Assembly (NCBI GenBank): GCA_965203665.1
Contig: OZ241905.1
Location: 174,275 to 238,274 of the forward strand
Direction: 5' to 3'
Length of the DNA: 64,000 nt
Origin: Nitrospirales bacterium
GTDB taxonomy: Bacteria; Nitrospirota; Nitrospiria; Nitrospirales; UBA8639
The notes beneath the pieces were generated by a model. It worked only from the letters and a program-made list of their open reading frames with translations. It ran no database searches and was not told the DNA's origin. Every line of letters starts with the position of its first letter. Position 1 is the stretch's first letter. Below are positions 14,090 through 36,809 of the stretch, in pieces. Both the position numbers and the translations under genes were made by a program.

Positions 14090-14103
14090 CAGCCTAATGA
14101 AAC

Positions 14104-15048: not shown

Positions 15049-15058
15049 AGGCTAACTG

Positions 15059-18448: not shown

Positions 18449-19284
18449 CGACCGGTCCTGTGAAGCGTGTCCTTGGTCTTTCCGGGGGGCGCGACAGTGC
18501 GGCGCTTGCCGTTTACATGCGACAGAACCACCCGGAGTACGATATCGACTATTTTTTCACCGACACCGGCAAAGAACTGCCGGAAGTCTATGAGTTTCTA
18601 GTTAAACTTGAAGGATTTCTCGGCAAGCCCATTTTACGACTCAACCCCGATCGCGACTTCGATTTTTGGCTCAAGCAATTCAATAACTTCCTGCCTTCTC
18701 CCCAAACACGTTGGTGCACGAGGCAACTCAAAATACGCCCCTTTGAGCGTTGGCTCAGACCGATACTCAACGATGGTGCGACGATTTACAGCTACGTCGC
18801 GATCCGCAGTGATGAAGAATATCGGGAAGGTTACTCTTCCAAACACGGCAACTTGATTGTTAAACTGCCGTTCAAAGAAGCAGGAATCGATAAGGCCGGT
18901 GTCTTGGAAATTCTCGAAGCTGCCGGGCTTGGATTGCCGAAATATTATGCTTGGCGAACGCGAAGTGGGTGTACCTTTTGTTTTTTCCAACAGAAAATCG
19001 AATGGGTGCGGCTCAAGGAGCAGCACCCCCAGGCATTCGAGGAAGCCAAGGCCTATGAGAAAGATGCTGTCACACATGGCTCGCCGTTTACATGGACGGA
19101 AGGCGAGTCATTGGAAGAGCTAGAGCAGCCGCAACGGGTCGATCAGATCAAACGGGACCACGAACAACGGCTTGTGCGGATGCAGTCGAAGGTACAGCCC
19201 AACCCGCTAAGGCCGGGTCGCGAGCCATTGGATATCGATGATCTCTACGGTCAGGCGAAAGTTTGTCTGGCGTGCCATAAGTAA
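18445..19284 (+). CDS. sspD: PP-loop ATP pyrophosphatase / PAPS-reductase family protein (SspD-like)
   Basis: PP-loop 'LSGGRDSAALAVY' (SGGxDS), 'TRWCTRQLK' and 'RSGCTFCFFQ' Cys motifs, and a C-terminal 'CLACHK'. Confidence 0.85.
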   Translation: MTTGPVKRVLGLSGGRDSAALAVYMRQNHPEYDIDYFFTDTGKELPEVYEFLVKLEGFLGKPILRLNPDRDFDFWLKQFNNFLPSPQTRWCTRQLKIRPFERWLRPILNDGATIYSYVAIRSDEEYREGYSSKHGNLIVKLPFKEAGIDKAGVLEILEAAGLGLPKYYAWRTRSGCTFCFFQQKIEWVRLKEQHPQAFEEAKAYEKDAVTHGSPFTWTEGESLEELEQPQRVDQIKRDHEQRLVRMQSKVQPNPLRPGREPLDIDDLYGQAKVCLACHK

Positions 19285-19353
19285 CCACTCAACTGATTTA
19301 ATTGACCAGATGCACGATTCGGACACCTGTTTGTTTCAGGTCTCCACAAGGGA

Positions 19354-20973
19354 ATGATGACTGTCATGTCAGGTGGATTAGGGCTTTCCGTTAATCAATT
19401 TCTTGAGTCACTGCCGGAAAACGTTCTCAGGAAATTTATAGATCCTGGTGTTCTATCGGTATTGAATGCGGTCTTTAGTGGCCGTGCAACTGGCGACGAT
19501 TTGCGGCGAGCTATGCAAATGCTCGTTAACGTTGACTTTGAACTGCTACTTGGTGAAGAGGACGGCCGAAATCTTGTATTGAAGCACATTCCAAAAAAGA
19601 AGCGCGCTGAATTTGAGAAGCGTGTCGGACGAAGCGTCGATTCGTCTCTCACAGGTAGTTGGACTGAAGCAGAAATCAGACAGATGCGTGACTTCTTCGG
19701 TCTGGTCGAAGAGCGAGCCATACAACCGCCAACGAAAGTTGAAGACATCATTCGGCCAGCATACGGCTTGTTCGACCACCAGAGGGACACCGTCGTCAGA
19801 TTGGCTCCACTGTTGGACCAAGATGAGAGAAAGGCTGTACTTCACCTTCCTACAGGTGTTGGCAAGACGCGCACCGCGATGCACATAGTGGCGAGTTCAC
19901 TGCGCGTCAACGATCCCTCGGTGGTAGTCTGGCTTGCATCTGGAAAGGAACTGCTTGAGCAGGCCGTACTCGCCTTTAGGGAAGCGTGGCACAATTTAGG
20001 GACGAGGCCACTGAAGATCGGAACAATGTTTGGCGACAAGGTTCCTGATCTTGACAATTTCAACGATGGTTTTCTAGCTGTCGGACTAGCCAAGGCCTGG
20101 GCTGTAATGTCTCGTACTGATCAAAATTGGGCAGCAAAACTTGCGTCACGCGTTCGGCTCGTAGTTTTTGATGAGGCGCATCAGAGTGTCGCCCAGACCT
20201 ACCGGCGGATCACTGAGGAGCTAACGCTTGATTTTCGATGCGCGTTGTTAGGGCTCACCGCCACCCCTGGTCGTACTTGGGCTGATATCGACAAGGATGG
20301 TGAACTCGTCGAGTTCTTTTCAGGCAACAAGGTCACGCTTAATGTCCCGGGCGACGACCCAATTGCATACTTAATCGACAACGGCTTTCTTGCCAAACCG
20401 TTCTTTCGGACTCTACTGGCGGAACCAGGTCTGAGCATTTCCGACAATGAGATCGCGCGTATCGCGGGGTTGTTGGAAATCCCGGAGGATATTGTGGCCG
20501 CCTTGTCGATGAGTGAGCAATATGTTACATCTGTGCTTGGCGCGATAGAAGAGCTCCTTGACTCGGGGCATCGGCGCCTACTCGTCTTTGCCGCTACAGT
20601 CCAACATGCCCAATTGCTAACGGCGATTCTTATTGCTCGCGATATTCGAAGCTTTTTAGTGACGGGCGTAACGCCCGAGCGGGTTAGGGATCGCGCTATA
20701 AAGACTTTCAAGTCGGAAGATGAGAAGTCGATGGTTCTCATCAACTATGGGGTATTGACTGCAGGGTTCGATGCCCCCAAGGCAAGTGCTGTGGTCATAG
20801 CCCGCCCGACACAATCTCTGGTTCTATTCAGCCAGATGGTTGGTCGCGCAATACGTGGGCCCAGGGCTGGTGGCACTGAAAAGTGCGAAGTAGTAACAGT
20901 CGTTGATCCGAGTCTGCCAGGATTCGGCGATGTAGCAGCGGCGTTTCTAAATTGGGAGGATGTATGGCGGTGA
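19354..20973 (+). CDS. SF2 DEAH-box helicase (ResIII-like); SspF-like by position
   Basis: Motif I 'LPTGVGKTRTA', II 'VVFDEAHQS', III 'GLTATPGR', VI 'QMVGRAIRG'. Confidence 0.85.
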   Translation: MMTVMSGGLGLSVNQFLESLPENVLRKFIDPGVLSVLNAVFSGRATGDDLRRAMQMLVNVDFELLLGEEDGRNLVLKHIPKKKRAEFEKRVGRSVDSSLTGSWTEAEIRQMRDFFGLVEERAIQPPTKVEDIIRPAYGLFDHQRDTVVRLAPLLDQDERKAVLHLPTGVGKTRTAMHIVASSLRVNDPSVVVWLASGKELLEQAVLAFREAWHNLGTRPLKIGTMFGDKVPDLDNFNDGFLAVGLAKAWAVMSRTDQNWAAKLASRVRLVVFDEAHQSVAQTYRRITEELTLDFRCALLGLTATPGRTWADIDKDGELVEFFSGNKVTLNVPGDDPIAYLIDNGFLAKPFFRTLLAEPGLSISDNEIARIAGLLEIPEDIVAALSMSEQYVTSVLGAIEELLDSGHRRLLVFAATVQHAQLLTAILIARDIRSFLVTGVTPERVRDRAIKTFKSEDEKSMVLINYGVLTAGFDAPKASAVVIARPTQSLVLFSQMVGRAIRGPRAGGTEKCEVVTVVDPSLPGFGDVAAAFLNWEDVWR

Positions 20974-22904
20974 CAACGATACCAGAGCAACTGAGTTTCT
21001 CGATTATCGATACCAAAATGACAATCGATTCTATGCGCGCCAGTGGATATAAATCTACAACGCATGCACTCGCTGAACTCATCGACAACTCACTTGAGGC
21101 CGGGGCAACAGCAATCGAGATTTTTGGAGTGAGCCGGCAGGAGAACAGTCCTCGAAGATTCAGGCTTACAGAACTAGCAGTCCTGGACAACGGCTCCGGG
21201 ATGGATGCAAACACTTTAAGGGGAAGTCTTCGATATGGTCACGGAACCCGCCGTGAGCGAAAAGGGATCGGTCGTTTTGGTCTCGGACTCCCCAACGCGT
21301 CGATGTCGCAAGCCAGACACGTAGATGTTTGGTCCTGGCAATCCGGTGTGACAAACGCTCTTCACACTCAACTTTCCATTGAAGACGTGGAACGAGGCGT
21401 CCGAGAAATACCTGAACCAAGTCTACAACCCATCCCAGATATTTACCTCAAATCGAGCTGCAACGGGTTTGGTGAATCCGGCACTCTCATAGTGTGGAGT
21501 AATCTCGACAGAGTCGAATGGAAGCAAGCTTCAACAACATTTCGACATACAGAGGCGCTACTAGGTCGGTTGTACAGGCGTTTTCTTGCCAAGCCATCCG
21601 AGCGACTCCACGCTGACGACCCTAGGGGAAATGAAATTGGCCAACAACGCACCATTTTGTGTGTGCCGATTTTGGATGACGGCTCGACGATCAGCGTACA
21701 ACGTAGTGACCTTGTCGAAGTGAAACCGAACGATCCTCTTTATCTTATGACCGATACTTCTTGCCCTGGGGAATTTGGTCCCGGACCTATGTTCACGGAA
21801 CTCGAAGGTAGCCCTTTTTTTGTCCCCGTAACGTACAAGGGCCAAAAATGCGATGTACGGGTTCGTGCGAGTTATGTCCGGCCTCACGCGCGCCGTTCTT
21901 CTGAGCCCGAAGCCAATTGGCCTCCTGAGTGGAGTGGCAAAGACGCCGGTCACACTCCCTGGGGAAAGCATGCCGACAATAATATGGGGGTATCGCTGGT
22001 TCGCGCGCACCGCGAAATACAACTCGATGACTCTTGGATAAGTGGTGACGATACGAGAGAGCGGTGGTGGACCGTCGAAGTCGACTTTCCGACCGCACTC
22101 GATGAAGTGTTCGGTGTCACCAACAACAAGCAGGGCACGATGACTTTCCAGCGACTAGCACGATACGACTGGCGACGAGAAGCACTTACCGGTGAAGAGT
22201 CGCCCCAGGATGTCCGCCGTCGTATGGAGGCGGATGGCGATCATCGGGTTTACCTATTGGATGTTCGTAGACAGATTACAAAGGCTATCGAGTTGATGCG
22301 ACCCAGAGTCAGAGAGACCAAGAAATCTCGGCATGATCCCCATGAAATAGACGAAGACAAGAAAGCTGACGAAAGGGCAACGGCCGCCATCAAACGCCGA
22401 ATCGAGGAAGGCGAGCGCGGAGAGTCTGATCGAGCCGGTGAATTTGGTACTGAGCAAGAACACAAGGAAGCGCACATTCAATCTCTCGTCGATAAACATC
22501 ATCTTGACCAGGGTGACGCGCTTCGGCGAATCGACGAAACGATGCGGGCTGGAAGCCGAGTGCGGTGGATTCAATCGGCGCAATCCAGCGCCGCCTTCTT
22601 CGATATCGACTCGCTACCAAACGTCATTCAAGTCTCGCTTAACACGAACCATCCTGTACATTCGCACCTGTACGATATCATGCATCCCGAGGTGGACGAG
22701 CTAACGGAAGACGAAATTCGGGATCGGCTGGCAAAAGCCGCCGCCGCATTCCGCATACTTATTTACTCATGGGCTCGCTATGAGGAAGAACAAACCGACC
22801 GTGAGCGTCGCCGCGTGCGTGATGCGCGCGTGGAATGGGGTAAGTACGCAGAGGAATTCTTCGATGAGGACGATGGTTCGCCTCCTCCTACCGACTTGGT
22901 GTAG
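20964..22904 (+). CDS. GHKL (HATPase_c_3/MORC-like) ATPase; SspG-like by position
   Basis: N-box 'ELIDNSLEAGA', G1 'LDNGSGMD', G2 'GRFGLGLPNAS'. ATG 20964 follows GGGAGGA and overlaps the helicase stop by 10 nt (ATGGCGGTGA). Confidence 0.85.
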   Translation: MAVTTIPEQLSFSIIDTKMTIDSMRASGYKSTTHALAELIDNSLEAGATAIEIFGVSRQENSPRRFRLTELAVLDNGSGMDANTLRGSLRYGHGTRRERKGIGRFGLGLPNASMSQARHVDVWSWQSGVTNALHTQLSIEDVERGVREIPEPSLQPIPDIYLKSSCNGFGESGTLIVWSNLDRVEWKQASTTFRHTEALLGRLYRRFLAKPSERLHADDPRGNEIGQQRTILCVPILDDGSTISVQRSDLVEVKPNDPLYLMTDTSCPGEFGPGPMFTELEGSPFFVPVTYKGQKCDVRVRASYVRPHARRSSEPEANWPPEWSGKDAGHTPWGKHADNNMGVSLVRAHREIQLDDSWISGDDTRERWWTVEVDFPTALDEVFGVTNNKQGTMTFQRLARYDWRREALTGEESPQDVRRRMEADGDHRVYLLDVRRQITKAIELMRPRVRETKKSRHDPHEIDEDKKADERATAAIKRRIEEGERGESDRAGEFGTEQEHKEAHIQSLVDKHHLDQGDALRRIDETMRAGSRVRWIQSAQSSAAFFDIDSLPNVIQVSLNTNHPVHSHLYDIMHPEVDELTEDEIRDRLAKAAAAFRILIYSWARYEEEQTDRERRRVRDARVEWGKYAEEFFDEDDGSPPPTDLV

Positions 22905-22910
22905 AGTGCC

Positions 22911-23819
22911 GTGGACGAAGTAAGTGGCAGCCAAGGAGACCGTATTCGTGCTCTTTTCGAGAAAGCTACAGATGGAGTCACAATTATCGCGCCGTTCATT
23001 AAAGTCGATGCGTTGCGGTCGCTGCTTAAAGTAATTCCGTCGCACGCGCACATTCGTTGTGTTACGCGTTGGTTTCCTCAAGAAGTCGCCGCTGGGGTGT
23101 CTGATCCAGAAATTTTTGAAGAACTGGAGGAACGCGGCAATTCGAACCTCTCACTAGTTGACAGGCTACACGCTAAGCTCTTCATTGTCGGTGAACGCTG
23201 TCTCGCTGGTTCAGCAAATGTGACTCTCGCAGGACTAGGCGAAGGAGTTGACAGGAATAACATCGAGGTTCTCGTTGAAACAACCACTGCTGATCCTGGA
23301 ATTTCAGCAACGCTCAACGAGATCTCGCAAGCGGAACGTCCCGCTACAACACTCTTAGCAGATAACGTTCGGCGTTTGGCAGACAGTATTACTGGCGAGA
23401 CGACATCAGAAATTGACCGCAATGCACTTTGGTTCCCGCGCAGTCGACGCCCTGAAGAAGCACATCGGTTCTACACCCAACCACCGAAGAAGCATGTAAG
23501 AGCCGTGGACCGCATTCTATTGGCTGATCTGGCAAGGTGTAATGTTTCACCTGGTCTTGAAGAGCAAGAATTTCGGACATTGATTCGTTCTCTTCTCGCA
23601 GCAATCCCAATTGCGAGAATCCTTCTTGACGCGACGGAAGATATGATGCTCACCCGCGCCGACTCCCACTCTTTTCTCGAAACAGTTGGGGGTGATGAGT
23701 TTTCCACCAACGATTTGTGGCTCGCATTCGTCAATTGGATGGTACATTTTTTCCCAGATCAGGTCATCAAGCAAGAAATCGCCGAGGTGGCGCTTCGACG
23801 CGCTCACCCACTTAGATAG
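22911..23819 (+). CDS. PLD-superfamily (single HKD-like motif) nuclease; SspH-like by position
   Basis: 'LHAKLFIVGERCLAGSANVTLAGL' (HxK....GSxN). GTG start 6 nt after the GHKL stop. Confidence 0.75.
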   Translation: MDEVSGSQGDRIRALFEKATDGVTIIAPFIKVDALRSLLKVIPSHAHIRCVTRWFPQEVAAGVSDPEIFEELEERGNSNLSLVDRLHAKLFIVGERCLAGSANVTLAGLGEGVDRNNIEVLVETTTADPGISATLNEISQAERPATTLLADNVRRLADSITGETTSEIDRNALWFPRSRRPEEAHRFYTQPPKKHVRAVDRILLADLARCNVSPGLEEQEFRTLIRSLLAAIPIARILLDATEDMMLTRADSHSFLETVGGDEFSTNDLWLAFVNWMVHFFPDQVIKQEIAEVALRRAHPLR

Positions 23820-24732: not shown

Positions 24733-27700
24733 TCATATCTTATTGATGGATCGCATGCGTGCCAATGCTTTGTTGATGGGCGGATCTGTCACGCCTCCGG
24801 GTATGATGGGCACATCATCGTCGTCTAAGGCGATTATATCAGGATCGTTTTCACCAATCTGCCAAGCCTGACGGGTTTCGAGTTGCCTTTTGGCAATCGC
24901 CAATTCAGGGGAAATTAGCTGAGGGCTTGGACTCATCTGAGCCGGTGCGAGAAAAAAACAACCCGTCTCCTGATAGGCTGTGATGAAATTGTCAACACCC
25001 TTAGAAGAGTTTGGTGACACTCGAATCACTCTCGACACAATTGAAAAGGTCTTTCCCTCGTTTTCCAACTGTCGAAGGTTTGGCCCGATGATTACCGCAT
25101 ACTTTGCATGGTTACGCTGAGATAGCCCGGCGATGATTGCGACTCGGATTGCCTCGTCTTTATCTTCATCGCCCCAGCGATTTTTCCACGCACGAAAAAT
25201 GGCTTGGCCAGCCTCTTCATCTTCGAATGCTATACCAAGTACGGGAGGTACTTCTTGGCCATAGGCGTACAGCGTGGCTCGCCACTTAGCTTGCTCCCAT
25301 AAAGGTATATCTATAGGAGATAGAACGCGACGATCTGTATGCTTCCACCGTTTCCTGTCAAGCGCCTCTTTAGAGGGGGGGGCAGTTCCAAACTTAGGGG
25401 ATTCCATCGGATTGCCTGGGTCTGCAGGTTTCACCGTGCGCCAAGGTCTATCTCGAAGTACGGCATAGCTCTCATTGGCGGGATCTAGCCAATCGATCAG
25501 GCGTATCGGAGGCGTTTCACCATAGACATTAAAGTTTAGGGTAAGAGTGTCCCCGAGTGTTATGGCGCGAGAGAAACCGCATTCCTGAATGGCCATTTTC
25601 TCGATCCAAGTATGCGCGTCCCGTATCAACAGCATCCGAACAACTATTTGCTCAAGGCTACCTTCGAGCCAATTCATGTAGGCCCGCCGTTCATCGGCGG
25701 TCGTGAATCTCAGGTTAGCTGGATGGACGATCTCGGCACGGCCACTGTCGTCATTATCGGGGAAACGGAGTGTCGGCACGTCCGTCGATTGCTGGGATGG
25801 ACTTAGAACAATCGTTAGACACTCTCGATAGGGCAACACGTCGCGCTCATCACTTGTTGCTAGAAAGGCCTCCAGGGCACCAAGGAGAGATTCGGCAATG
25901 CTGATAGAAATCGTATTATTGGGCGTTTCAACCACGAGTTCAGATCCCAGAATCTTCGACTTCAGAAGACTTGTCGGTCCATCTGCCAACATCGGTTTAG
26001 GAGGAATGTGTTTGGCCACGGGATGGTCTTGCAACGACTCAAAAAGGGTCTGAACGGCATTCGAGTCTTCAATAGCTGGGATAGACTCTTCGTCACGCAG
26101 ATGCTGCTCGTGGCCAAGAGCGAACAGCACCGCCGTCCTGGCTGAAAACAACTCTAGTTGTTCCAGCGTATCAGGCAAACGTTCCACGCATGGAAGTGCC
26201 TCATATGGAAGGTTCAAAAAGTGAATGCCTAGCACAAGTTCCTGATGCCACAGTTCTTCGGCATACGAATTTTGTTCCTCCTCTGACAGTTTCAGCTGAG
26301 AAGCAATACCGTTTGCAAGGGTTATTGCACTCAGCACATGAGGGACACGGCCAAGCTGTAGTTCGATCCAGACGAGGCGTTTAGTGGCGATCAGTGCCTG
26401 AGGGACAAACTTTCCTTCTTCGTTGAATACAGCTAGGTTGCGTTCAACAGCCGCCAATGCTTTGTTTCTGGCAGCCCAGAGAAGACCCACATTCTCATAA
26501 GCGCAACTGCTTCCAATAAGCACCGCGATCAGCTTTGTGCGATATTCATCTTTGATCAACAATTCTTCGGCTTGGCCGAACCATCGGATCGCCTCATAAT
26601 ATTTCTCTTGTCTCAGCTTTTGGAAGCCACGCTGAGAAGATGCTTGGCCTGCTGCACCGTCGCTACGCCGCTGTCGGATTACGTCGACGAGTTTTTCGTA
26701 AAGAGAGTCGAAAGCAGGACTGCTGATACGTTCCCCGAGTTCAGTCACGATGTCAAAAAGCTGCTCTATAGGATAAGTACCCAAAGGAGCAGCCTCATTG
26801 ACAATCTGAGCTAGATCAGCCCAGCAAGAATCCAACTGGTCGGATAGTTGGGCTTGAGCAGACTGCGTAATTCTCATGTACACGAGTCCAGTGCGAGCCT
26901 GGAGGGCATTGTTCAGGCGTAGGGGGTCGGAAGCTATAGCCTCCAGCATCTCAACCAAGCGCTGCCTGCGAGAATCAATTTTGGCGTCTTGAGGGTCAAG
27001 CCGTCCTGCAAATACTGATGTCGTCAGAAGCTGCCAGAGCCTTAGAAGGAATTCAACTTCGCATGCTTGGACTGAACCTTCAACACGCTGTTCAACCTCT
27101 TCGTAGAATTGATTAAACATGGAATAGTCTTCGTACCACCAGTAGGCTGTCCAAGCACGATTGTAGGCGATACGTAGTTGCTGCGGTCTGTAGTCGACAG
27201 ACCGTGCTAGTCGTTCCGCGTGTACAAAACGGCTTTCTACCTCATTTCTGGCTCGCTCGAGGCCTCTAGCTAGGAGTGCCGTGCGTAGACAGTCCTCGAC
27301 CAACTGATAGCGCGCACCTTGGTAACATGATGGGTCGGCGACTTGCTGGTCTAGTTCTTCCAGTTCCAAAAGCCGCTCAGCGTCGCGAGGACCGAGCCGG
27401 TTTCTCTTTTCGCTTTGGAAGCCTTCAACACCCAAGGTGGCTGCGGCAAGCTCTAGGTGGTTGGCGTCGTAGACCTTTTCAACGATCCAGGCGCGGTCGA
27501 TAATATGTACGGGAATCTTTGCCAACTTGGAGAGCGCATCTTCTTGAGTTGCACGTACCTTGTCGCTGACAAATTGATTGGTGAAGAAATAGATACGTTT
27601 GTAGTCGCGGCCAGTGGATAATATGCTATGAACGTCGGCTTTAAGCTTAGATTTCCACTCCTTCTTTGCGCTGAAGGCGAAGGCCCACCGCTCCGCTCCA

Positions 27701-28038
27701 GCCGATGGAGTGCCTATCCACCAACGCTCTGCGATCTCCTCGGCTACTGGATATGTTTCAGTATCAACTTTGCTATCGCCACCTCCAGTGGGGCCTGTTT
27801 GAACGCGAAGATTGGGGCATATCTCTTTTTCGGCCAGCTTTCGACAGAAATGCTCGAACTCGTATTCACCTTTACGACTCGTGAGTGTTTCAAGATAGTA
27901 TTCGAACACCTGCTTCGAGATCCGGGGGACATCATCAACTTGAGTGTCTGAGAAAAGATCCGGATGGCGAGCCCGCATGAACTCGCTAGGACTGAGCATG
28001 TTCTTCTGAAATAGAGTCTGATCGGTCGTCTTACTCAT
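24733..28038 (-). CDS. 1101-aa protein: Mrr-like PD-(D/E)xK nuclease N-domain plus ~850-aa helical-repeat region
   Basis: N-terminus 'GEYEFEHFCRKLAEKEICPNLRVQTGPTGGGDSKVDTETY...WAFAFSAKKEW' fits an E / D / (S/Q)xK nuclease-core arrangement. The remainder is alpha-helical, TPR-like, with no Walker A motif. Confidence 0.8.
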   Translation of the reverse strand: MSKTTDQTLFQKNMLSPSEFMRARHPDLFSDTQVDDVPRISKQVFEYYLETLTSRKGEYEFEHFCRKLAEKEICPNLRVQTGPTGGGDSKVDTETYPVAEEIAERWWIGTPSAGAERWAFAFSAKKEWKSKLKADVHSILSTGRDYKRIYFFTNQFVSDKVRATQEDALSKLAKIPVHIIDRAWIVEKVYDANHLELAAATLGVEGFQSEKRNRLGPRDAERLLELEELDQQVADPSCYQGARYQLVEDCLRTALLARGLERARNEVESRFVHAERLARSVDYRPQQLRIAYNRAWTAYWWYEDYSMFNQFYEEVEQRVEGSVQACEVEFLLRLWQLLTTSVFAGRLDPQDAKIDSRRQRLVEMLEAIASDPLRLNNALQARTGLVYMRITQSAQAQLSDQLDSCWADLAQIVNEAAPLGTYPIEQLFDIVTELGERISSPAFDSLYEKLVDVIRQRRSDGAAGQASSQRGFQKLRQEKYYEAIRWFGQAEELLIKDEYRTKLIAVLIGSSCAYENVGLLWAARNKALAAVERNLAVFNEEGKFVPQALIATKRLVWIELQLGRVPHVLSAITLANGIASQLKLSEEEQNSYAEELWHQELVLGIHFLNLPYEALPCVERLPDTLEQLELFSARTAVLFALGHEQHLRDEESIPAIEDSNAVQTLFESLQDHPVAKHIPPKPMLADGPTSLLKSKILGSELVVETPNNTISISIAESLLGALEAFLATSDERDVLPYRECLTIVLSPSQQSTDVPTLRFPDNDDSGRAEIVHPANLRFTTADERRAYMNWLEGSLEQIVVRMLLIRDAHTWIEKMAIQECGFSRAITLGDTLTLNFNVYGETPPIRLIDWLDPANESYAVLRDRPWRTVKPADPGNPMESPKFGTAPPSKEALDRKRWKHTDRRVLSPIDIPLWEQAKWRATLYAYGQEVPPVLGIAFEDEEAGQAIFRAWKNRWGDEDKDEAIRVAIIAGLSQRNHAKYAVIIGPNLRQLENEGKTFSIVSRVIRVSPNSSKGVDNFITAYQETGCFFLAPAQMSPSPQLISPELAIAKRQLETRQAWQIGENDPDIIALDDDDVPIIPGGVTDPPINKALARMRSINKI

Positions 28039-28429
28039 CGCGATAAAATGGTGGTTTGAGAACTAACGAGCGCCCTATTGAAGTGTGGTACGGTAAGCAT
28101 AATAACATTCTGAGGATATAAGCCCAACATCCGGAATGTCTATTTTTGACGACTGGAAGGTGGCAACGAGTGACCTTTTCCCTAAATTTGCTCCAAGTCG
28201 AAAGTGAGGAAGTGGTCGAATTGAGGGGTCCCCGGAAGGACCCGCACTACTCTTATAAAGCCTCATGATCTCACTAACTCCTTACGCTTGACTTGGCTCT
28301 CAAGGGAACTACATTGTAGAGAAAGGCTCTGCGCAATGCCCTCCGAATCCTATTCCAGAAAAGCTGCCGGTGAAGGACTCAATATTCATGAGACCCGTGC
28401 ATAGAGCTGACAATCTGAAAGGAAAGAAC

Positions 28430-29863
28430 ATGGGAATACGTATCCAACCATGCGAAATCGATGTGCCCGCAGAGGCTCCTTTCAAGAACGACCTGCTAGA
28501 TCGGAAGGAGCCTGTAGAGGTTCTGACTCGCTTGGTGAGTTCCCTGGAAGGACCATGTGTTCTGGCTGTCGATGCCGCGTGGGGGAACGGCAAAACCACA
28601 TTTCTAAACATGTGGGCTCAGTACCTGCGCAACCAGGCATTTCCAATTGTCAAGTTCAATGCTTGGGAAACAGACTTCTCGGGCGATCCCTTTGTCGCGC
28701 TCTCAAAGGAACTCACACGTGGTCTCCAAGAATACACAAACGGGTCGATGACGCAGCAAATCGAGGACGGGGCGAAAAAAGTGCTGCAAGAGACCCTGCC
28801 AATTCTGACGCGACTCGGCACCGCGGTCATTCCAGGGGTGGGACCAGAAGTCAGTAAGGTCATTGAGTCCTATGTCTCATCATACGTAGGGGCAAAAGAG
28901 TCTGTCCGAAAATTTAGGGACACATTACAGGAAACGGCAAAAAAGGTATCAAAAGCCAAAGGTGACAAGCCGGTCGTCGTGATGATCGACGAACTGGACA
29001 GGTGCCGCCCGTCTTATGCGGTCGAGCTCCTTGAAGTAGCCAAGCATCTGTTCGCTGTGGATCATATTGTCTTCGTGCTGGCGGTCAATCGTTCTGAACT
29101 CGCGCATTCCATCAAAGCCCTATATGGCGGGAGCTTTGATGCCCAAGGATACTTGCGCCGGTTTTTTGATTTAGACTTCCGGCTTCCGGCACCTGGTCGG
29201 ACTGCCCTCATCAACCACTTACTCATGACGACGAAAATCAACGACTACTTTAAGCAGGAACAAGATTCGGCGGCAGAGAGGGACTATGAACTTGTCAGAA
29301 AATGGTTGATTTACTTTTTTGATGATCCTGACCTCAGTCTGCGAAGCATTGCCCAGGCCATCCACCGACTAGGATTGGTATTCGCATCGTTGCGGAGCGA
29401 CCAGCAGACTTTTGCGAGAATGGCCGCTGTATGTCTGATCATAAGGACCATAGACGAAGATTTGTATCACCAGTTCGCCCAAGGTGAGGTGTCGGATCAC
29501 AATGTTGTTGCAAAGTTATTCAGCGGACCTGGGGCAAGAGCTCTACAACACGAGAAGGACGGGCATCTATTTGAAATTGCGGTCATTTCGGCCAAGCTGG
29601 AAGGAAAACAAATGACAGAGGAAACGAGTAGTTCAGAACTCTTGCGACATTATAGTGAGCTTGTTGGTTCCGATGAACTTTCGAAGTTAAAAATTCTGGA
29701 ACCACTTCAAAGGCCCCCACTGCAACCAACCGGCTCTGATTGTTCGGAACTTGAGCATGCGAAAACAATCATCTTCAGCAGGCGCTTTGGCGACATGCCA
29801 GGATTCAGAGTAGCAGTTCAGCGTCTCGAACTGTTTTCCCCCGATCTTATCGATGATCGTTGA
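28430..29863 (+). CDS. KAP-family P-loop NTPase
   Basis: 'VLAVDAAWGNGKTTFLNMW','KFNAWETDFSGDP','VVVMIDELDRCRPSYAVELLE','VFVLAVNRSEL'. Alternative starts are GTG 28370 and ATG 28388. Confidence 0.85.
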   Translation: MGIRIQPCEIDVPAEAPFKNDLLDRKEPVEVLTRLVSSLEGPCVLAVDAAWGNGKTTFLNMWAQYLRNQAFPIVKFNAWETDFSGDPFVALSKELTRGLQEYTNGSMTQQIEDGAKKVLQETLPILTRLGTAVIPGVGPEVSKVIESYVSSYVGAKESVRKFRDTLQETAKKVSKAKGDKPVVVMIDELDRCRPSYAVELLEVAKHLFAVDHIVFVLAVNRSELAHSIKALYGGSFDAQGYLRRFFDLDFRLPAPGRTALINHLLMTTKINDYFKQEQDSAAERDYELVRKWLIYFFDDPDLSLRSIAQAIHRLGLVFASLRSDQQTFARMAAVCLIIRTIDEDLYHQFAQGEVSDHNVVAKLFSGPGARALQHEKDGHLFEIAVISAKLEGKQMTEETSSSELLRHYSELVGSDELSKLKILEPLQRPPLQPTGSDCSELEHAKTIIFSRRFGDMPGFRVAVQRLELFSPDLIDDR

Positions 29864-29916
29864 CGACACCAAAATGCCACAGAATCTAGTTTTGAAAATG
29901 GGGAGCTTGGGACAAT

Positions 29917-30654
29917 ATGGGCTTTAAGTCATGGAATAGCTATAGTCATTTTTCTTGGGAAGTCACACACAGCAACCGCTATATCTATAGGGATGATGAG
30001 AAGGACTTTCTGGCGAATGTCTTGGAAACAAGCCAGTCTCGGGCGACGACCGTTGGTTCTGGCAGTGTCTTCTGGAGGGCACAGCTAGGATGCAACTGGC
30101 GGCCCATAATTCAAGATGGTGAAGAAGTAGGGGAAGAACCTGAACCGTTTTCCCCTCAGAGAATGAAGCCGGTTTCATTTGGAGCTTTTGAAGGCAGAGT
30201 CAATCCCAAAGGAATTCCCTGCCTCTACCTTGCCACAAAGAAAGAAACAGCCATGTCCGAAGTGCGGCCATGGCTTGAGTCATATATCTCGGTTGGTCAG
30301 TTTCAGACGGTAAAGGAGTTAACGCTGATAAATTGTTCAGTGCATCCGCCCAATGGATTGACTATCTATTTTGAAGAGCCAGACGAACAGAAAAAGGAGA
30401 AGGCGGTTTGGGAAGACATTGACCGGGCTTTTTCTCGACCCGTTACTGTGAGTGACACTTTATCGGACTATGTTCCGACGCAAATACTGGCTGAGCTGTT
30501 CAAAAATAATGGGTTCGATGGCGTCTATTACAGGAGTGCGCTATCACATGGCTTGAACGTTGCCCTGTTCGATATGAATGCTGCTAAAATCATTAACTGC
30601 TTTTTGCATAAAGTGGAAAAAATCCAGTTTGCGTTTGGGGAGCCTTTCCTTTGA
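29917..30654 (+). CDS. RES-domain protein (putative NAD+-targeting toxin/effector)
   Basis: 'FWRAQ', 'EGRVNPKGIPCLYLATKKETAMSEV' (R, E) and 'YVPTQILAELFKNNGFDGVYYRSALSHGLNVALFD' (S). The gene starts 53 nt after the KAP gene. Confidence 0.8.
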   Translation: MGFKSWNSYSHFSWEVTHSNRYIYRDDEKDFLANVLETSQSRATTVGSGSVFWRAQLGCNWRPIIQDGEEVGEEPEPFSPQRMKPVSFGAFEGRVNPKGIPCLYLATKKETAMSEVRPWLESYISVGQFQTVKELTLINCSVHPPNGLTIYFEEPDEQKKEKAVWEDIDRAFSRPVTVSDTLSDYVPTQILAELFKNNGFDGVYYRSALSHGLNVALFDMNAAKIINCFLHKVEKIQFAFGEPFL

Positions 30655-30856
30655 TCTATCCGCTAGTCCTACTTTCTTCAGAAGGATGAGGGCACTCAAA
30701 GCCCCTAAGTGACCATACCAAAAGTTAAGTCAGTTGGCCGCCAATCATCGCGCATAATGCGAATGTCATCGTAACCAAACTCCCGGCAAATAAAGCGATG
30801 AAGGACAAGGCGGTTTTGGAGAAGAGAGGTTGCGACCAGGCGACGACGTGGGGGCA

Positions 30857-31198
30857 TCAGCGGGGCTCAGGCAGCATGAGTTTCATGATTTCGCGGACAA
30901 TACCCTCTCTGACCTCTGGTTTGAGATGGGCGACTGATCTCTCCATGATACCGACATTCGCCGTAAATAATCTGGCGGGCCTGACGTAGCTCGTTTTGAT
31001 CAACTGGCCGCTAGTAAAACTGCTTTGCTCTATTTTTATGGCGCGTTGGTCATAGTACGGTTGGCTGGTAATTTGGCATAAGATAAAGTCGTCTTGCCCG
31101 GCTTCGGCAAGTATTAGTGCGGGTCTCAATTTCTGTTGGCTTAAATCAGAGAACGGGAAACGGACAAGCACAACGTCTCCTACTGAAAATTTTGCCAT
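30857..31198 (-). CDS. mazF: MazF/PemK-family toxin
   Basis: 'GDVVLVRFPFSDLSQQKLRPALIL...ILCQITS...SYVRPARLFT' fits the PemK fold pattern. Confidence 0.85.
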   Translation of the reverse strand: MAKFSVGDVVLVRFPFSDLSQQKLRPALILAEAGQDDFILCQITSQPYYDQRAIKIEQSSFTSGQLIKTSYVRPARLFTANVGIMERSVAHLKPEVREGIVREIMKLMLPEPR

Positions 31199-31377
31199 GC
31201 CCGATCTTCCTCCGCCGTTTTCCAGTCAGCCGCCAGACTGTTTTCGCTGAGATGAGCGCATTCGCCGGCATTTGATACTGCCTCTTGATCTTTAAACCGT
31301 TGTTTGACAAACAGAAAAAAATCGTAGACTTCCTGTTGCGCCGCTTCCGGCAAGACAGACAGATCGATCGATTTCAT
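31180..31377 (-). CDS. DUF2281-like antitoxin
   Basis: 'LPEAAQQEVYDFFLFVKQRF' and a C-terminal 'ADWKTAEEDRAWQNF'. It overlaps mazF by 19 nt. Confidence 0.65.
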   Translation of the reverse strand: MKSIDLSVLPEAAQQEVYDFFLFVKQRFKDQEAVSNAGECAHLSENSLAADWKTAEEDRAWQNFQ

Positions 31378-31391
31378 TGTTCATCCCTCCA

Positions 31392-31466
31392 GTAGGTCGG
31401 ATTAGCGTAGCATAATCCGACATGGGGCTGCAGTGTCGGGGTACGCCTTCGGCTAACCCGACCTAC
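31392..31466. repeat. inverted pair of REP-like palindromes, family A (BIME-like)
   Basis: 'GTAGGTCGGATTAGCGTAGCATAATCCGAC' (31392-31421) and, in the opposite orientation, 'GTCGGGGTACGCCTTCGGCTAACCCGACCTAC' (31435-31466). Confidence 0.7.
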
Positions 31467-31473
31467 GGCTCTC

Positions 31474-31977
31474 TCATGCATCTTCCAACCAAGGTAATCG
31501 GCTTTGAAAAATTTCTAAAATTTCTTTGGCACAATCTTGAGACACATCGTTCAATACATAGCCCTTAAAGAGATGGCCGTGAGATTGTTTCATGGCATAT
31601 AGTGCCTGTTTGAATTTGGTACGATCATTTTCAGATAGACATAGTATATGTTCACGTTCAGCGAAATCTAAATCATTCATAAACTCTTTTGTTGTCTCAA
31701 AAACGGCTGATTGTGCATTCTTATAAACATGTTGCTTGCCATCCCAATGAGAACTTCCACCCATAGACGTTCCATATTTCGTTTTATAAGTAACAGGTCG
31801 ATCAGTCGTTTGTTGAGCAACAGCTATTTCCTGTAATCGATTACGGTATTCTTGGAAAAGTTGCCGTACAGAGTTTCTTGTCTTTCGTTGTTTGTTTTTC
31901 CTCTTTACCCAATCAATGATTTTATATGCTGCCCCGAGCAGAATAAGAAGATGAGAAACAAATTCAAGAATCGCCAT
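31474..31977 (-). CDS. hypothetical protein with N-terminal TM anchor (167 aa)
   Basis: 'ILEFVSHLLILLGAAYKIIDWV' TM helix followed by a Lys/Arg stretch. The ORF is AT-rich and flanked by REP elements on both sides. Confidence 0.55.
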   Translation of the reverse strand: MAILEFVSHLLILLGAAYKIIDWVKRKNKQRKTRNSVRQLFQEYRNRLQEIAVAQQTTDRPVTYKTKYGTSMGGSSHWDGKQHVYKNAQSAVFETTKEFMNDLDFAEREHILCLSENDRTKFKQALYAMKQSHGHLFKGYVLNDVSQDCAKEILEIFQSRLPWLEDA

Positions 31978-32005
31978 GACAGATGTATCTGAAAAATAAT
32001 GTGAT

Positions 32006-32037
32006 GTCGGGTTACGCCTTCAGCTAACCCGCCCTAC
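32006..32037. repeat. REP-like palindrome, family A
   Basis: 'GTCGGGTTACGCCTTCAGCTAACCCGCCCTAC'. It supplies the last codons and the stop of the 32020..32925 ORF ('AVGRVS*'). Confidence 0.65.
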
Positions 32038-32925
32038 GGCTTTCTGCATCTGATGGTGTTTGTTAACGAGATAAGCAGCGAACGAGGCGCAGGCACCGAA
32101 CATGAATACAGCCTCGTCCAAGCCGACATCTGAGGAGTCTTTGAATACCAGCGAATGACGGACACCCTCTTCGGCATTAGTATATGCATAAATTTTTTCA
32201 AATCCCGTCTTGAGCTGCCTATTTGTGAGTAGCCCCTTGTTCTCAAGGTTTTTCAGTGCCTCACCAAGTGTTTTTGATTTTGGAGCGATTTTGCGAGCGA
32301 CAGATTCAACCGCTTCGATGCTGGACTCAACCGAATCTGCATATTGCTGCGCTTTGAAGCGTACCGCCGCTTGCCTCAAATGGGTTGCTGCGCCTTCCAT
32401 ACCACCCTCGCGGAGCGTTTCAATGGCCCGCTTCGTTGCTTCGCCTTGCTCTTGGCTGGCGCGCGGCACGATAGTTGGAACGTTGTCTATGTTTGCAACA
32501 AAGTAGGCGATTGGTGATTTATCAAATGCGTCCATCAGATATTGCCCCAATCTCTCTGAGCACTTATCATGTCGCAGGATGAATTCTATAAAGGTCAACA
32601 CTTCATGGTATTCACCATTCCTTATTTGTTCGTGACAGAATCTTATGTCGCCTTGATATGTGTGGGATTCGATCTCATCATGCCATTTTCCAAGAATCTC
32701 AAATTGGTACAAAAACAGGATGGAGCCTAAATCCCAATCCGTATAGCCGTCTATAGGATCCTCATCATATGTCGAATTTATTGCCTCCTGAATACAGCGC
32801 CACACTCTCCGCCTGAAGTCGTCCGGGATGCTGTCTGTTTGCATGGATTCTGGTAGCGGAGATTTTCCTTCACGTTGAGCGAACGTCAATTTGTAGAATG
32901 CATCATCAGCTTTGTGAACCATCAT
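32020..32925 (-). CDS. AbiJ-like abortive-infection protein (AbiJ-NTD4-like N-terminus, Abi_C/HEPN-like C-terminus)
   Basis: N-terminus 'FAQREGKSPLPESMQTDSIPDDFRRRVWRCI' fits the AbiJ N-terminal pattern (F.qR.g......Q.....LRN.lWN). C-terminus 'SVESSIEAVESVARKI...YAYTNAEEGVRHS...EAVFMFGACASF' resembles the Abi_C/HEPN pattern with G(I/V)RH. Confidence 0.65.
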   Translation of the reverse strand: MMVHKADDAFYKLTFAQREGKSPLPESMQTDSIPDDFRRRVWRCIQEAINSTYDEDPIDGYTDWDLGSILFLYQFEILGKWHDEIESHTYQGDIRFCHEQIRNGEYHEVLTFIEFILRHDKCSERLGQYLMDAFDKSPIAYFVANIDNVPTIVPRASQEQGEATKRAIETLREGGMEGAATHLRQAAVRFKAQQYADSVESSIEAVESVARKIAPKSKTLGEALKNLENKGLLTNRQLKTGFEKIYAYTNAEEGVRHSLVFKDSSDVGLDEAVFMFGACASFAAYLVNKHHQMQKAVGRVS

Positions 32926-33161
32926 TCAAGTTCCTCAAACATCAATTCGCGAAAAACCGGCTCGATGGTTTTTGCGATCCAGGTTTCTCTTGGTGGTTTC
33001 AGGGCATTCAGAGTGTGGTCGCCGTTAGCGTCGTATTCGGCCAGTTCTTCAGCCCGGACCGGGGCCGTATGGGAAAGATACAACGCGTAGGCGTATTCAC
33101 TCTCACCACCGACATTGAGGTTAGACCGCACATCGTGCAGCCGCTTCAGCATTACGCGCAT
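32922..33161 (-). CDS. small acidic protein (79 aa), translationally coupled to the AbiJ-like gene
   Basis: Its stop overlaps the AbiJ-like start (ATGA at 32922-32925). No motif recognised. Confidence 0.5.
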   Translation of the reverse strand: MRVMLKRLHDVRSNLNVGGESEYAYALYLSHTAPVRAEELAEYDANGDHTLNALKPPRETWIAKTIEPVFRELMFEELE

Positions 33162-33287
33162 GTCGTCTTATCCGAATTTCCGGAAAAAATGAAGCGATGC
33201 AGGACAAGCCGTTTTGGAGAGTAAGGGATCAGATTTCAAGCATGGCCCAGCGGTCCCCTTACCGCTGAAGTAGCGTTCATGACTATA

Positions 33288-34193
33288 TTACTCCTTGGAT
33301 GGTGGTAATTCCGGTAGGATGCAAGCAGCGTCAACATCATTTCCCGTTAAATTTCCAACAATTTCGGCTGCCACTGTTGCGCTACTCATGTACGCCGTAT
33401 ATTCGTCTGGTACAGATTCGCGAGCCAGCTTCATGACCCGGTTCTGCACAGCAGCATCATTCCAGGCAGCGGATTTAGCCACCGCTGTTGTAAAGGCAAG
33501 TTCCAATTTGCGCACTTTATCCAAGTTTGCATTTAACTCCGAGATTGGGTTGCTACCGACAAATTTTCCACCGACATAGACACCTTGACTAAGGCCGATA
33601 AGCATCAGATAGGAGTTGTCAATTGAAAAAGACCCTAAAGATTCCGCCGCGATAACACCTTTGTATAAAAGTGAAATTCCTACAACCACTGAAAAAGCTA
33701 CTGCTTGGAATCTCGCAACTTCGAACCCCTGATCAGAAGTCAAAAGATCACTAAACTTTGGCATATACTCAGATGAAGTTCGCGTAAAATCGTTTTTGAT
33801 CCAGCGTTTTTTCTTGGCCCAAGCCCAATTCTCTCCAGTCACCCGAGAACGAACCATGTTGGCTGCCCTACCCAGGCCGGCACCGCCAGCCGCAACACCC
33901 AACAACCAGAGTATGGAGTCGTTTATAGGAACTAGCTTGCCTTCTTTTATGACCCAATAAATTGAAATCCAAAGCACGATCAAGGTGAAAAAAAAGACCT
34001 GAGTTTTCGACAGACTAGCCCGACCGGTAGGTTCGGCGGTTGTTTTTAACGGATTGGCAGTTAGTTTATGCCCCCATCGGGGTTTTGCCGCGTTGGCTGC
34101 TAACAAGTAGAAAAAAATGACTGCTGCGGTAGCTACTATGGTAGCCATTATTTCAGAGGGAATGTTAAATGACATCGCCTCTTTGTGCTCCAC
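33288..34193 (-). CDS. multi-pass membrane protein (301 aa), unknown function
   Basis: At least four hydrophobic helices ('IMATIVATAAVIFFYLLA','VFFFTLIVLWISIYWVI','ILWLLGVAAGGAGLG','FQAVAFSVVVGISLLY') and a soluble C-terminal ~90 aa. Confidence 0.65.
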   Translation of the reverse strand: MEHKEAMSFNIPSEIMATIVATAAVIFFYLLAANAAKPRWGHKLTANPLKTTAEPTGRASLSKTQVFFFTLIVLWISIYWVIKEGKLVPINDSILWLLGVAAGGAGLGRAANMVRSRVTGENWAWAKKKRWIKNDFTRTSSEYMPKFSDLLTSDQGFEVARFQAVAFSVVVGISLLYKGVIAAESLGSFSIDNSYLMLIGLSQGVYVGGKFVGSNPISELNANLDKVRKLELAFTTAVAKSAAWNDAAVQNRVMKLARESVPDEYTAYMSSATVAAEIVGNLTGNDVDAACILPELPPSKE

Positions 34194-34211
34194 TATGGTG
34201 AGAACAATCCC

Positions 34212-34251
34212 GTAGGTTCGATTAATGTAGCATAATTCGATGTAGGGCTGC
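34212..34251. repeat. REP-like element, family A (AT-shifted variant)
   Basis: 'GTAGGTTCGATTAATGTAGCATAATTCGATGTAGGGCTGC' versus 31392-31431 'GTAGGTCGGATTAGCGTAGCATAATCCGACATGGGGCTGC'. Confidence 0.55.
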
Positions 34252-34356
34252 TACTCTTCCTGAAGGGGACTTACGTAGGTAACTCGACATAGCACTGAAT
34301 ACTGCCATTTTAAGCTGTTGTAATCCTGAAGGGACCCCGATCTTTGGTCCACGGGA

Positions 34357-34599
34357 TTAGCGATTTTCTGACCGCTGTTGGTGCCATTGCGCCCTGTACT
34401 GCGAGGGCGTCAGGTTGTTGAGAGACCGGTGAGGCCGCTCCTCATTGTATTCCTGTTTCCAAACCTGCAACTTCGCCCGCGCATCCGTCAAATCCTCGAA
34501 CCAGTGCACGTTCAAACACTCTTCCCGTAAGCGCCCGTTGAACGATTCAATGTAGGCATTATCGGTCGGCTTGCCGGGCCGCGAGAAGGCCAGCGTCAT
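34357..34599 (-). pseudogene. IS3-family transposase (OrfB) C-terminal fragment
   Basis: 'FSRPGKPTDNAYIESFNGRLREECLNVHWFEDLTDARAKLQVWKQEYNEERPHRSLNNLTP' is the end of the DDE/rve integrase core. The upstream ~300 aa are absent. Confidence 0.8.
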
Positions 34600-35110
34600 T
34601 CAAAGCATCCTTCAGGAATAGCCAATTCGATGATGTGACGAGCGGTCCGGTGCCTGGTTTCCTTGGTAACGGGAACAGGAAGAGTGACAGAAGAAGGAAC
34701 AGGACCGGACGCGAATGACCCGCTCTAATCTGTATGACGATCAGTATAACTGACGAGTGGAGCCAAACGCGAACCCCTATAAATACAGGAGTTTAACGGG
34801 CTAATGTAATTTTGGGAGGATAGTCTGCCAGAAATCGTCTCCTTTGTGGCTTAGTTTTTGGTGAGACCCTCAAATTCGACGACAACGAGAGGCCTGCTCC
34901 TTCTAGCGATACGATTTGTTTTCGACAGCGACCACATAAACAGTTGCCAATTCCGGCTTAGGTTCGACATGATCGACTTGCCCGAACTTCGTGTGGCACC
35001 GATCTGATGAACGCGTGTCAGGGGAGGTTCTCGCAAGATTTGCCACCGGGGTGGAGTGAACGTGGCAAGCAAACCGACTTCTTTGCCAGCGTCAACAAGA
35101 TTCAAGATCG

Positions 35111-36799: not shown

Positions 36800-36809
36800 G
36801 GGACCAGCC

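Follow-up and report, generated by a model that had tools for sequence, protein, structure and literature searches.

The gene and its surroundings

Within a 64,000-nucleotide stretch of the genome of a Nitrospirales bacterium (contig OZ241905.1, positions 174,275 to 238,274; hereafter the window) lies an intact open reading frame (ORF) with an ATG start (24733..28038, minus strand), which encodes 1101 amino acids followed by a stop codon. A preliminary description made from the nucleotide sequence had taken its product for a stand-alone protein with an Mrr-like nuclease head, a long helical-repeat body and no NTPase, which could act as a single-gene defence system. As more than 2,000 full-length homologues exist, the ORF is a real gene and not a chance reading frame. 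That it stands alone is borne out by 80 homologous loci, which contain no conserved partner gene and in which the most widespread neighbour family recurs in 6. It is also monocistronic and divergently oriented in the window, as had been described: the minus strand 3' of the gene holds no ORF longer than 51 amino acids, and on the other side lies a pair of plus-strand genes coding for a KAP_NTPase (28370-29863) and a RES protein (29917-30654). At its 3' side the gene converges with a plus-strand series encoding a class-V aminotransferase, DUF4007/SspB, SspC, SspD, a ResIII/DEAD helicase, an HATPase_c_3 protein and a PLD-like protein, while PemK/MazF-like and AbiJ-like genes lie beyond the KAP-RES pair; its reported position between an Ssp cluster and toxin-antitoxin-type genes is hence correct.

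Domain architecture

A full-length AlphaFold2 model built on an alignment of 121 sequences (mean predicted local distance difference test, pLDDT, 86; predicted template-modelling score, pTM, 0.76) predicts the following parts, given here from the N-terminus onwards:

27424..27981, minus strand: N-terminal domain (N-domain), residues ~20-205, with the AlphaFold2 element order alpha-beta-beta-beta-alpha-beta-alpha-beta; presumed effector
25999..27396, minus strand: alpha-solenoid resembling tetratricopeptide repeats (TPRs), residues 215-680, about 24 helices, modelled by AlphaFold2 at pLDDT>90 and matched by Foldseek
25489..25986, minus strand: C-terminal domain 1 (CTD1), residues 685-850, alpha+beta in the AlphaFold2 model; most variable folded part
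25342..25488, minus strand: Pro/Gly-rich linker, residues 851-899, of low model confidence (predicted disordered) and poorly conserved
24814..25341, minus strand: C-terminal domain 2 (CTD2), residues 900-1075, alpha/beta, with conserved blocks SPIDIPLW..AKW and AWQIGENDPD
24736..24813, minus strand: acidic/Pro-rich conserved tail followed by a terminal helix, residues 1076-1101, consensus DDxPIIPxGVTDPPV

The helical, TPR-like body of about 850 residues envisaged in the preliminary description thus holds for residues 215-680 (~465 residues), which are predicted to form a superhelix of tandem helix-turn-helix units and whose top Foldseek matches in the PDB are the TPR domains of LGN/Pins (E 4e-4, probability 1.00, TM-score normalized to the target 0.46-0.50). 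It does not hold for the last ~420 residues, where the models instead show two alpha/beta domains and a disordered linker; both domains also appear in a separate model of residues 678-1101 (pLDDT 82). A docking role for the acidic/Pro-rich tail is a matter of speculation.

Conservation is unevenly spread over these parts. The N-domain is the best conserved of them: its mean pairwise identity among 43 diverse members of the family is 51%, compared with ~31% for the solenoid, 23% for CTD1 and 33% for CTD2. A conserved enzyme head with a recognition end that diversifies would be expected to give such a gradient, and CTD1 is presumed to be the specificity or sensor module. No alternative N-terminal domain was found among 270 collected relatives, and hidden Markov models (HMMs) of the N-domain and of the full-length protein, when run against every ORF of the 80 loci, matched only family members and no other architecture such as Avs2.

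The proposed lack of an NTPase is upheld by several observations: a regular-expression search of the protein sequence recovered no Walker A-like motif, the model passes from the head to the repeats without an alpha/beta P-loop domain, residues 215-680 being all-helical, and no AAA or STAND model from Pfam or NCBIfam was matched by the 43 members.

The N-terminal domain and its possible relationship to restriction endonucleases

The case for a nuclease head had been made from four strings, all of which are present in the protein: YEFEHFCRKL (residues 59-68), GGGDSKVDTETY (85-96), WAFAFSAKKEWKSKL (118-132) and YKRIYFFTNQFV (146-157). In the AlphaFold2 model the domain consists of a helix (55-72), a hairpin region (76-96), a strand (117-123), a helix (128-141), a strand (146-153), a helix (159-173) and a strand (177-180), an order which fits that of the PD-(D/E)xK fold. 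Two segments of this presumed core concentrate the conserved polar residues:

27751..27801, minus strand: invariant motif QTGPTGGGDSKVDTETY, residues 80-96, presumed beta1-beta2 hairpin with D88, K90, D92 and E94; lowest-entropy window of the protein, AlphaFold2 confidence <50
27643..27687, minus strand: WAFAFSAKKEWKSKL, residues 118-132, strand beta3 with S123-A-K125 in place of (E/Q)xK, then the start of helix alpha2 with K131 (AlphaFold2 and conservation)

An alignment of 320 N-domain sequences shows D88, D92, K131 and D135, the last lying just beyond the second segment, to be conserved in 320/320; S123 of the 'FSAKK' strand is near-invariant (318/320), followed by K90 and E94 (316 each), E62 (305) and K125 (295). 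Comparison by eye with Escherichia coli Mrr pairs the FE(x)F helix (FEhF with FEvI), the GDxxxD hairpin (GGGD88SKVD92 with GDGGIDG), the x-A-K strand with its Trp (FS123AK125KeW with VQAKRW), the hhhT..F strand (IYFFTNQF with VFITTSGF) and the h-h-D strand (VHIID with MVLVD), all in the same order of elements. When the full model was searched against the viral structure library BFVD with Foldseek, the sole match outside the repeats was a 292-residue Siphoviridae 'Restriction endonuclease' (170 columns, 16% identity, root-mean-square deviation 5.6 Å, probability 1.00, E 0.077), a label which Pfam itself uses to describe Mrr_cat, a family to which this target may belong. With hhalign we aligned the N-domain (alignment A6) with an Mrr_cat profile made from 28 sequences of phage contigs with GDGGIDG over 92 colinear columns (E 0.0038).

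A number of results weigh against a nuclease of the Mrr type. With the 320-sequence alignment the hhalign E-value against the same profile was 0.067, the reversed-profile and other-region controls giving 0.12-0.74; hhalign against the single sequence of E. coli Mrr found nothing, and Smith-Waterman scores against shuffled sequences gave z = 0.5, both tests being uninformative alone. The Pfam nuclease models (PF04471, PF13156 and others of the PD-(D/E)xK type) matched neither the protein, the isolated N-domain, a divergent paralogue from locus L026 nor the 43 members at E<=1-10, with E. coli Mrr recovered at 1.5e-39 as a positive control. Residues 80-111, which include the invariant hairpin, are modelled at pLDDT<50, possibly because invariant columns give no covariation signal. 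The Lys at the canonical position, K125, is replaced in 8% of the members, and Ser or Thr takes the place of (E/Q) throughout, which suggests that the chemistry may not be that of a standard nuclease. Two of the invariant residues, K131 and D135, lie outside the canonical PD-(D/E)xK signature. The domain further differs from Mrr_cat (PF04471) in a 22-residue insertion after the hairpin and in the extra invariant K90, K131 and D135, and the window protein is devoid of the Mrr_N winged-helix DNA-recognition domain.

These properties raise the alternative that the head is a restriction-endonuclease-derived domain without DNase activity, that is, a binding or adaptor module or an enzyme acting on RNA or nucleotides, with the protective or toxic activity being different or residing elsewhere. 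Besides the variable Lys in S-A-K, the absence of K90, K131, D135 and the likewise invariant R144 from the Mrr_cat consensus, the missing nuclease HMM match and the unmodelled glycine-rich invariant loop, this alternative draws on the presence in Pfam of inactive restriction endonuclease domains from NLR-like proteins, one of which (NA-iREase1) matched E. coli Mrr. However, inactive domains normally lose their acidic residues, whereas D88 and D92 are retained here in 320/320, E94 in 316/320 and E62 in 305/320, and the greater conservation of the N-domain relative to the rest of the protein points to catalysis. We hence regard a non-DNase head as unlikely. In our reading the N-domain is probably derived from a restriction endonuclease and catalytic, with a rearranged active site. 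Of the Mrr-like head of the preliminary description, the element order, the motifs and the marginal structural and profile matches remain, while the absence of an Mrr_cat HMM match and the non-invariant canonical Lys speak against it; the link to Mrr is weakly supported and membership in Mrr_cat is not established.

Two other leads were pursued and dropped. The L026 locus carries a tandem pair (genes at 6684-9875 and 9923-13288), in which the divergent full-length paralogue lies directly upstream of a standard member; it has 1063 residues, 24% identity in the N-domain, the hairpin motif GGDQGRDFE and the strand FACTLEK. As it has no Pfam match it could not serve as a bridge to Mrr_cat. Residues 42-149 also show a colinear match to the ribosomal protein uS7 of E. 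coli (phmmer E 0.02; profile E 0.014; LETL..R.G..E.E.F, RW, K..DVH), which we consider fortuitous because hhalign against an 80-sequence S7 profile built from metagenomes gave E 0.11-0.26.

The C-terminal domains

Foldseek searches of the PDB with the C-terminal model yielded weak matches, most of the top 50 being M1 or M61 aminopeptidases (best E 1.9e-3) with local alignments of 108-169 columns and probabilities of up to 0.98. Among the weak matches is also 9wuf, the cryo-EM structure of the defence protein Upx (E 3.9e-3, probability 0.98, 169 columns). Upx is reportedly a system of Gao 2020. The resemblance to M1/M61 enzymes and Upx belongs to either CTD1 or CTD2; CTD2 gave no informative structural match. 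The identification as an M1 aminopeptidase was rejected, since the protein sequence has no HExxH zinc motif and hhalign of the C-terminal domain against E. coli PepN detected no similarity; no Pfam peptidase match was found in the 43 members either. What is left is a weak fold resemblance to these gluzincins, so that one of the C-terminal domains is at most a degenerate, non-catalytic version of a zincin-like fold, and the predicted correspondence with Upx is a lead only.

Size, spread and annotation of the family

The PADLOC check proposed in the preliminary description, together with Pfam and NCBIfam, returned no match to the window protein (PADLOC: 0 families at E<=1), in keeping with its statement that the protein cannot be assigned to a named system. 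The 43 diverse relatives, when scanned singly against Pfam and NCBIfam, likewise gave nothing useful even at E<=1, the weak matches being TPR_12 at E 0.01 in 4/43 and a stray nSTAND6 match (E 0.032) in 1/43. PDB sequence searches with full-length, N-domain and C-domain profiles produced nothing meaningful, and none of the papers searched mentions the family or the accessions WP_130932631, WP_179052152, WP_138511596 and WP_169284794.

The family is large. A word-indexed search returned more than 2,142 matches; each of the best 120 is full-length (about 1,090-1,150 residues), shares 53-86% identity with the window protein and is named 'hypothetical'. Among representatives at 50% identity, which were searched exhaustively, 2,266 clusters match at E<=1e-3, with 775 at E<=1e-30, and essentially all span residues ~15-1097 of the window protein; the family accordingly has a fixed architecture of ~1100 residues. 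When one genome per species was scanned with a pattern, relatives turned up in at least 269 of the species genomes, which represent about 14 phyla; the taxa include Nitrospirota, Binatia, Desulfobacterota, Alpha-, Beta- and Gammaproteobacteria, Latescibacterota, Chloroflexota, Acidobacteriota, Cyanobacteriota, Bacillota, Planctomycetota, Verrucomicrobiota, Actinomycetota, Chlorobiaceae and Poribacteria.

This distribution is patchy, with cross-phylum identities of 60-68%: the window protein is 68% identical to a homologue from a metagenome-assembled genome (MAG) of Binatia, 63% to one from Desulfuromonas and 64% to one from a Thermodesulfovibrionales MAG, which is likely to belong to the window's own phylum. 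As identity does not track taxonomy, the sequences indicate horizontal transfer of the family. Copies are carried on 15 plasmids, 7 of them conjugative, from hosts including Agrobacterium, Cupriavidus, Burkholderia, Pantoea and Nostoc, and a 26%-identical copy is found on one unannotated 'Bacteriophage sp.' contig. In some loci the homologue is broken by insertions, namely in L015 (757-residue ORF), L020 (~5 kb with four ORFs) and L038 and L077 (opposite-strand ORFs of insertion-sequence size), and in L017, L045 and L055 it is split by apparent frameshifts, which may reflect pseudogenisation or assembly error.

Genomic contexts of the homologues

Among 131 nearest neighbours of the homologues, strong PADLOC matches are to Avs2, GajA, DpdF, Type I and II restriction-modification (R-M) systems, PD-T7-5, PsyrT and AbiEii; other nearest neighbours are integrases, resolvases and transposases, and GmrSD, Mrr and TIR proteins are found further in the neighbourhoods. 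The nine neighbourhoods with Pfam or PADLOC annotation can be classed as defence or mobile in eight cases and as metabolic in the ninth. The evidence is qualitative, but it places the relatives mostly beside defence genes or in variable islands, as the preliminary description would have led one to expect. In L293 the homologue lies between F-type transfer genes and a block coding for DUF4238, GmrSD, a methylase, a true Mrr, Vsr and an NgoFVII-type enzyme; on an Agrobacterium plasmid it adjoins the Tn7-like tniQ, tniB and transposase genes.

A tRNA gene lies <=10 kb from the homologue in 16/60 loci and within ~600 bp of it in 8 loci. In three loci of related Acidobacteriota MAGs (L036, L043 and L048) the homologue (~10001-13258) is placed inside an array of 20-29 tRNA genes, which ends ~400-660 bp before it and restarts ~90 bp after it; this arrangement could reflect an insertion into the tRNA array or something functional. 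On two unrelated plasmids, Nostoc pTCL26-01_F (L203) and one of Cohnella herbarum (L204), parA and parB adjoin the homologue, and the former also carries AbiEii and a NACHT protein nearby.

The integrative island of the window

In the window the gene is part of the cargo of an integrative island, and its 5' flank is in common with a related Nitrospirales MAG (locus L001, contig OZ242026.1):

10729..40938, strand not assigned: integrative island of ~30 kb, with the target gene among its cargo; bounded by tRNA-Ser(cga) and a repeat, and of lower G+C content inside
40851-40938, minus strand: tRNA-Ser(cga), the island boundary
39488-40729, minus strand: P4-type tyrosine integrase, next to tRNA-Ser
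28039..28176, minus strand: upstream region common to the window and L001, the blastn match stopping at 28176
28142-28113, minus strand: promoter-like site TAGACA-18-TATCCT from a promoter scan (putative function)
28127-28099, minus strand: promoter-like site TTGGGC-17-TATTAT read by eye (putative function)

The boundaries are marked by an 18-bp exact direct repeat of the tRNA 3' end, ATGGCGGAGAGGGTGGGA, at 10729-10746 and 40850-40867, which can be extended to ~24 bp with a 2-nucleotide indel. The cargo comprises the Ssp genes, the target gene, the KAP-RES pair, the MazF-like and AbiJ-like genes and transposase debris. L001 has the integrase, the tRNA-Ser and the downstream flank in common with the window (~91% nucleotide identity), and at this same site it carries the target gene with 138 bp of its upstream sequence (89.5% nucleotide identity). 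There, the gene abuts the integrase, is inverted with respect to the window and is preceded by Azaca ZacB/ZacC in place of KAP-RES; the window segments compared are 24767-31037 and 39476-49361, the shared segment being inverted. The preservation of the gene and 138 bp amid different cargo suggests that the conserved unit is the gene with its own promoter-like region, and from these sequences the tRNA-Ser site looks like a defence hotspot with turnover of cargo between close relatives.

The other genes of the island provide no partner for the target gene. Homologues of the Ssp, helicase, HATPase and PLD genes occur beside none of the homologues in the 80 loci, and the only island gene that recurs there is the integrase, in L001, with distant integrase homologues in L018 and L070. 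A functional linkage to Ssp or KAP-RES, neither of which recurs, was therefore rejected. As for these genes themselves, the region 12764-23819 encodes a cysteine-desulfurase-like protein and SspB, SspC and SspD (strong PADLOC matches), followed by the helicase, the HATPase_c_3 protein with a weak MzaB-like match and the PLD-like protein with weak ZacB/DrmC-like matches; it is possible that the last three form a three-gene restriction module of the phosphorothioate system that PADLOC v2 does not name. The KAP-family P-loop NTPase (28370-29863) corresponds to the PADLOC candidate PDC-S20 (E 1e-111), and the RES protein directly after it has no PADLOC match. Beyond these lie a PemK/MazF-like toxin (30857-31198) for which no antitoxin was identified, an AbiJ_NTD4 protein (32020-32925) corresponding to PADLOC PDC-S32, an rve_3 integrase-core fragment (34357-34599) and a weakly TPR-like protein of 364 residues (37454-38548); several ORFs of 157-360 residues in 30857-38548 have no Pfam match.

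Comparison with known defence systems

The closest parallel in layout is provided by the Avs proteins, especially Avs2 and Avs4 with their N-terminal Mrr-like nucleases. In Avs2 an N-terminal Mrr-like nuclease is combined with a TPR domain and a beta-rich C-terminal sensor (PMC13601566). The window protein resembles this EcAvs2 layout in being a single chain of similar size in which, according to the model, a restriction-endonuclease-like effector domain is followed by a TPR-like array and C-terminal alpha/beta domains, and its family resembles Avs in residing in defence islands and in its horizontal mobility. Unlike Avs, it has its TPR array directly after the effector, without an intervening STAND/NB-ARC ATPase, it has no PADLOC Avs match and no effector swapping within the family, and there is no HMM-level similarity to Avs2 or to other proteins in the 80 loci.

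The lack of the ATPase is shared with Upx, which combines a nuclease with a large sensor and has no STAND NTPase; reportedly it is the phage terminase that Upx senses, and beta-augmentation with a segment that is unfolded is a possible mode of recognition (PMC13601566; its structure is given in PMC13099982, and triggers and structures in both). Upx and the window family are alike in being one-protein combinations of a PD-(D/E)xK nuclease, in the window family a candidate one, and a large unannotated sensor, in their broad but patchy distribution, in the weak match of the C-terminal model to 9wuf and in occasional tandem pairs, the L026 pair recalling the paired Upx genes (PMC13601566). They differ in that the nuclease is C-terminal in Upx, while the nuclease-like domain of the window protein is N-terminal, in that a TPR solenoid is not described for Upx, and in the absence of sequence similarity, with 0 PADLOC Upx matches at E<=1.

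None of the sequence tests by which Mrr_cat, Avs, Upx and metallopeptidases are defined is passed by the window protein, and only the architectural features of Avs are found in it. By analogy, the kind of system would be a known one, the single-chain sensor-effector nuclease, and the family a candidate for an undescribed instance of it.

Proposed function and alternatives

On balance we favor the view that the protein is a self-contained, ATP-independent sensor-effector belonging to the mobile anti-phage defence repertoire, with a nuclease as its head. Its two parts are not equally secure: a role in defence is more likely than the specific nuclease mechanism and can be considered probable. Under this proposal the concave TPR solenoid would form a clamp together with the C-terminal alpha/beta domains, which are variable, and the ligand of this clamp would come from the invader, the likeliest candidates being a phage protein and an exposed stretch of peptide. 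Once bound, the ligand might relieve autoinhibition and/or drive self-association, upon which the N-terminal restriction-endonuclease-like domain, with E62, D88, K90, D92, E94, S123, K131 and D135 as candidate active-site residues, would be activated. The activated head would then degrade DNA, and thereby either stop phage replication or kill the cell (abortive infection). The gene itself appears to move, promoter included, as a one-gene cassette among integrative islands, plasmids and the hsdS-hsdR gaps of Type I R-M operons.

Several points detract from this proposal. The ligand and the substrate are putative, as is the step of oligomerisation; the homologue L287 lies among metabolic genes; effector swapping, which is seen in Avs families, does not occur among the 270 relatives; and there is no Pfam, NCBIfam or PADLOC model that fits the window protein, nor a useful one from Pfam or NCBIfam for the 43 members.

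A bolder version, which we offer tentatively and consider possible but doubtful, is that the window protein is the first representative of a widespread undescribed family of ATP-independent 'Avs-like' pattern-recognition nucleases. Within their single chain, a degenerate zincin-like C-terminal domain, distantly shared with Upx, would act with the TPR clamp to recognise a phage protein or unfolded peptide, and a non-canonical Mrr-derived nuclease would be switched on without NTPase-driven oligomerisation.

A different role is suggested by the company of R-M genes. In the prr locus of E. coli, hsdS and hsdR flank the gene for PrrC, a protein which combines an ABC-type ATPase with an anticodon-nuclease domain. 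In at least eight loci (L005, L006, L067, L058, L288, L289/L290, L292 and L294) the homologue occupies this very position, co-oriented between hsdM/hsdS and hsdR, and in L006 hsdS overlaps its start; in the window the gene abuts the Ssp helicase-HATPase-PLD module. It is conceivable that the protein is likewise a second line of defence, which is kept latent by a Type I R-M complex or keeps watch over it (Ssp or some other restriction module could take the place of this complex), and which fires when a phage anti-restriction factor disables the complex. However, this niche is restricted to a subclade, most of the loci, including the window, being without hsd genes; the window Ssp genes do not accompany any homologue elsewhere; and there is no similarity to PrrC in sequence or domains. 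Moreover, the same hsdS-hsdR gaps contain unrelated inserts (an AAA_15/SMC_N ATPase, MNT/HepT, PIN/PhdYeFM, a TIR protein and AIPR), and the gap therefore behaves as a general insertion hotspot for defence genes. Such a guard function appears improbable.

Less probable still is an accessory function in mobile elements unrelated to defence, for instance in maintaining a plasmid or island, in excluding competing elements or as a regulatory scaffold. The parA/parB neighbours on the Nostoc and Cohnella plasmids, the Tn7-like genes on the Agrobacterium plasmid, the F-type tra genes of L293 and a chromosomal copy among metabolic genes would be compatible with it, but no maintenance gene is recurrently linked to the family, the recurrent neighbours are R-M and other defence genes, and the gene is frequent in chromosomal tRNA-linked islands. 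Finally, a cryptic STAND-like receptor whose NTPase P-loop has escaped detection is very improbable: the nSTAND6 match, the glycine-rich loop GPTGGGDSK and the name 'ATP-binding protein' given in one RefSeq version to the Maricaulis alexandrii homologue (WP_138511596.1, L064), which we discarded as no NCBIfam or Pfam HMM backs it, are outweighed by the lack of a Walker A motif, of an alpha/beta domain in residues 215-680, of a supported ATPase model and of any PADLOC Avs/NLR match.

Implications

To a specialist, another fusion of a nuclease with TPRs would be unsurprising, whereas an abundant NTPase-less Avs-like family that standard libraries miss is worth pursuing. Being invisible to Pfam, NCBIfam and PADLOC v2, the family would be missed by defence censuses relying on such models; its recurrence in Type I R-M operons and at the edges of tRNA-linked islands renders it useful as a marker of defence hotspots. 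Its large size, culturable hosts, plasmid-borne copies and the point mutants that can be designed make it a good candidate for experiment. If these proteins do work in defence, the Avs-type layout can function in the absence of a STAND ATPase, to which activation has been attributed, and what the NTPase adds would become a question directly testable by comparison of the two.

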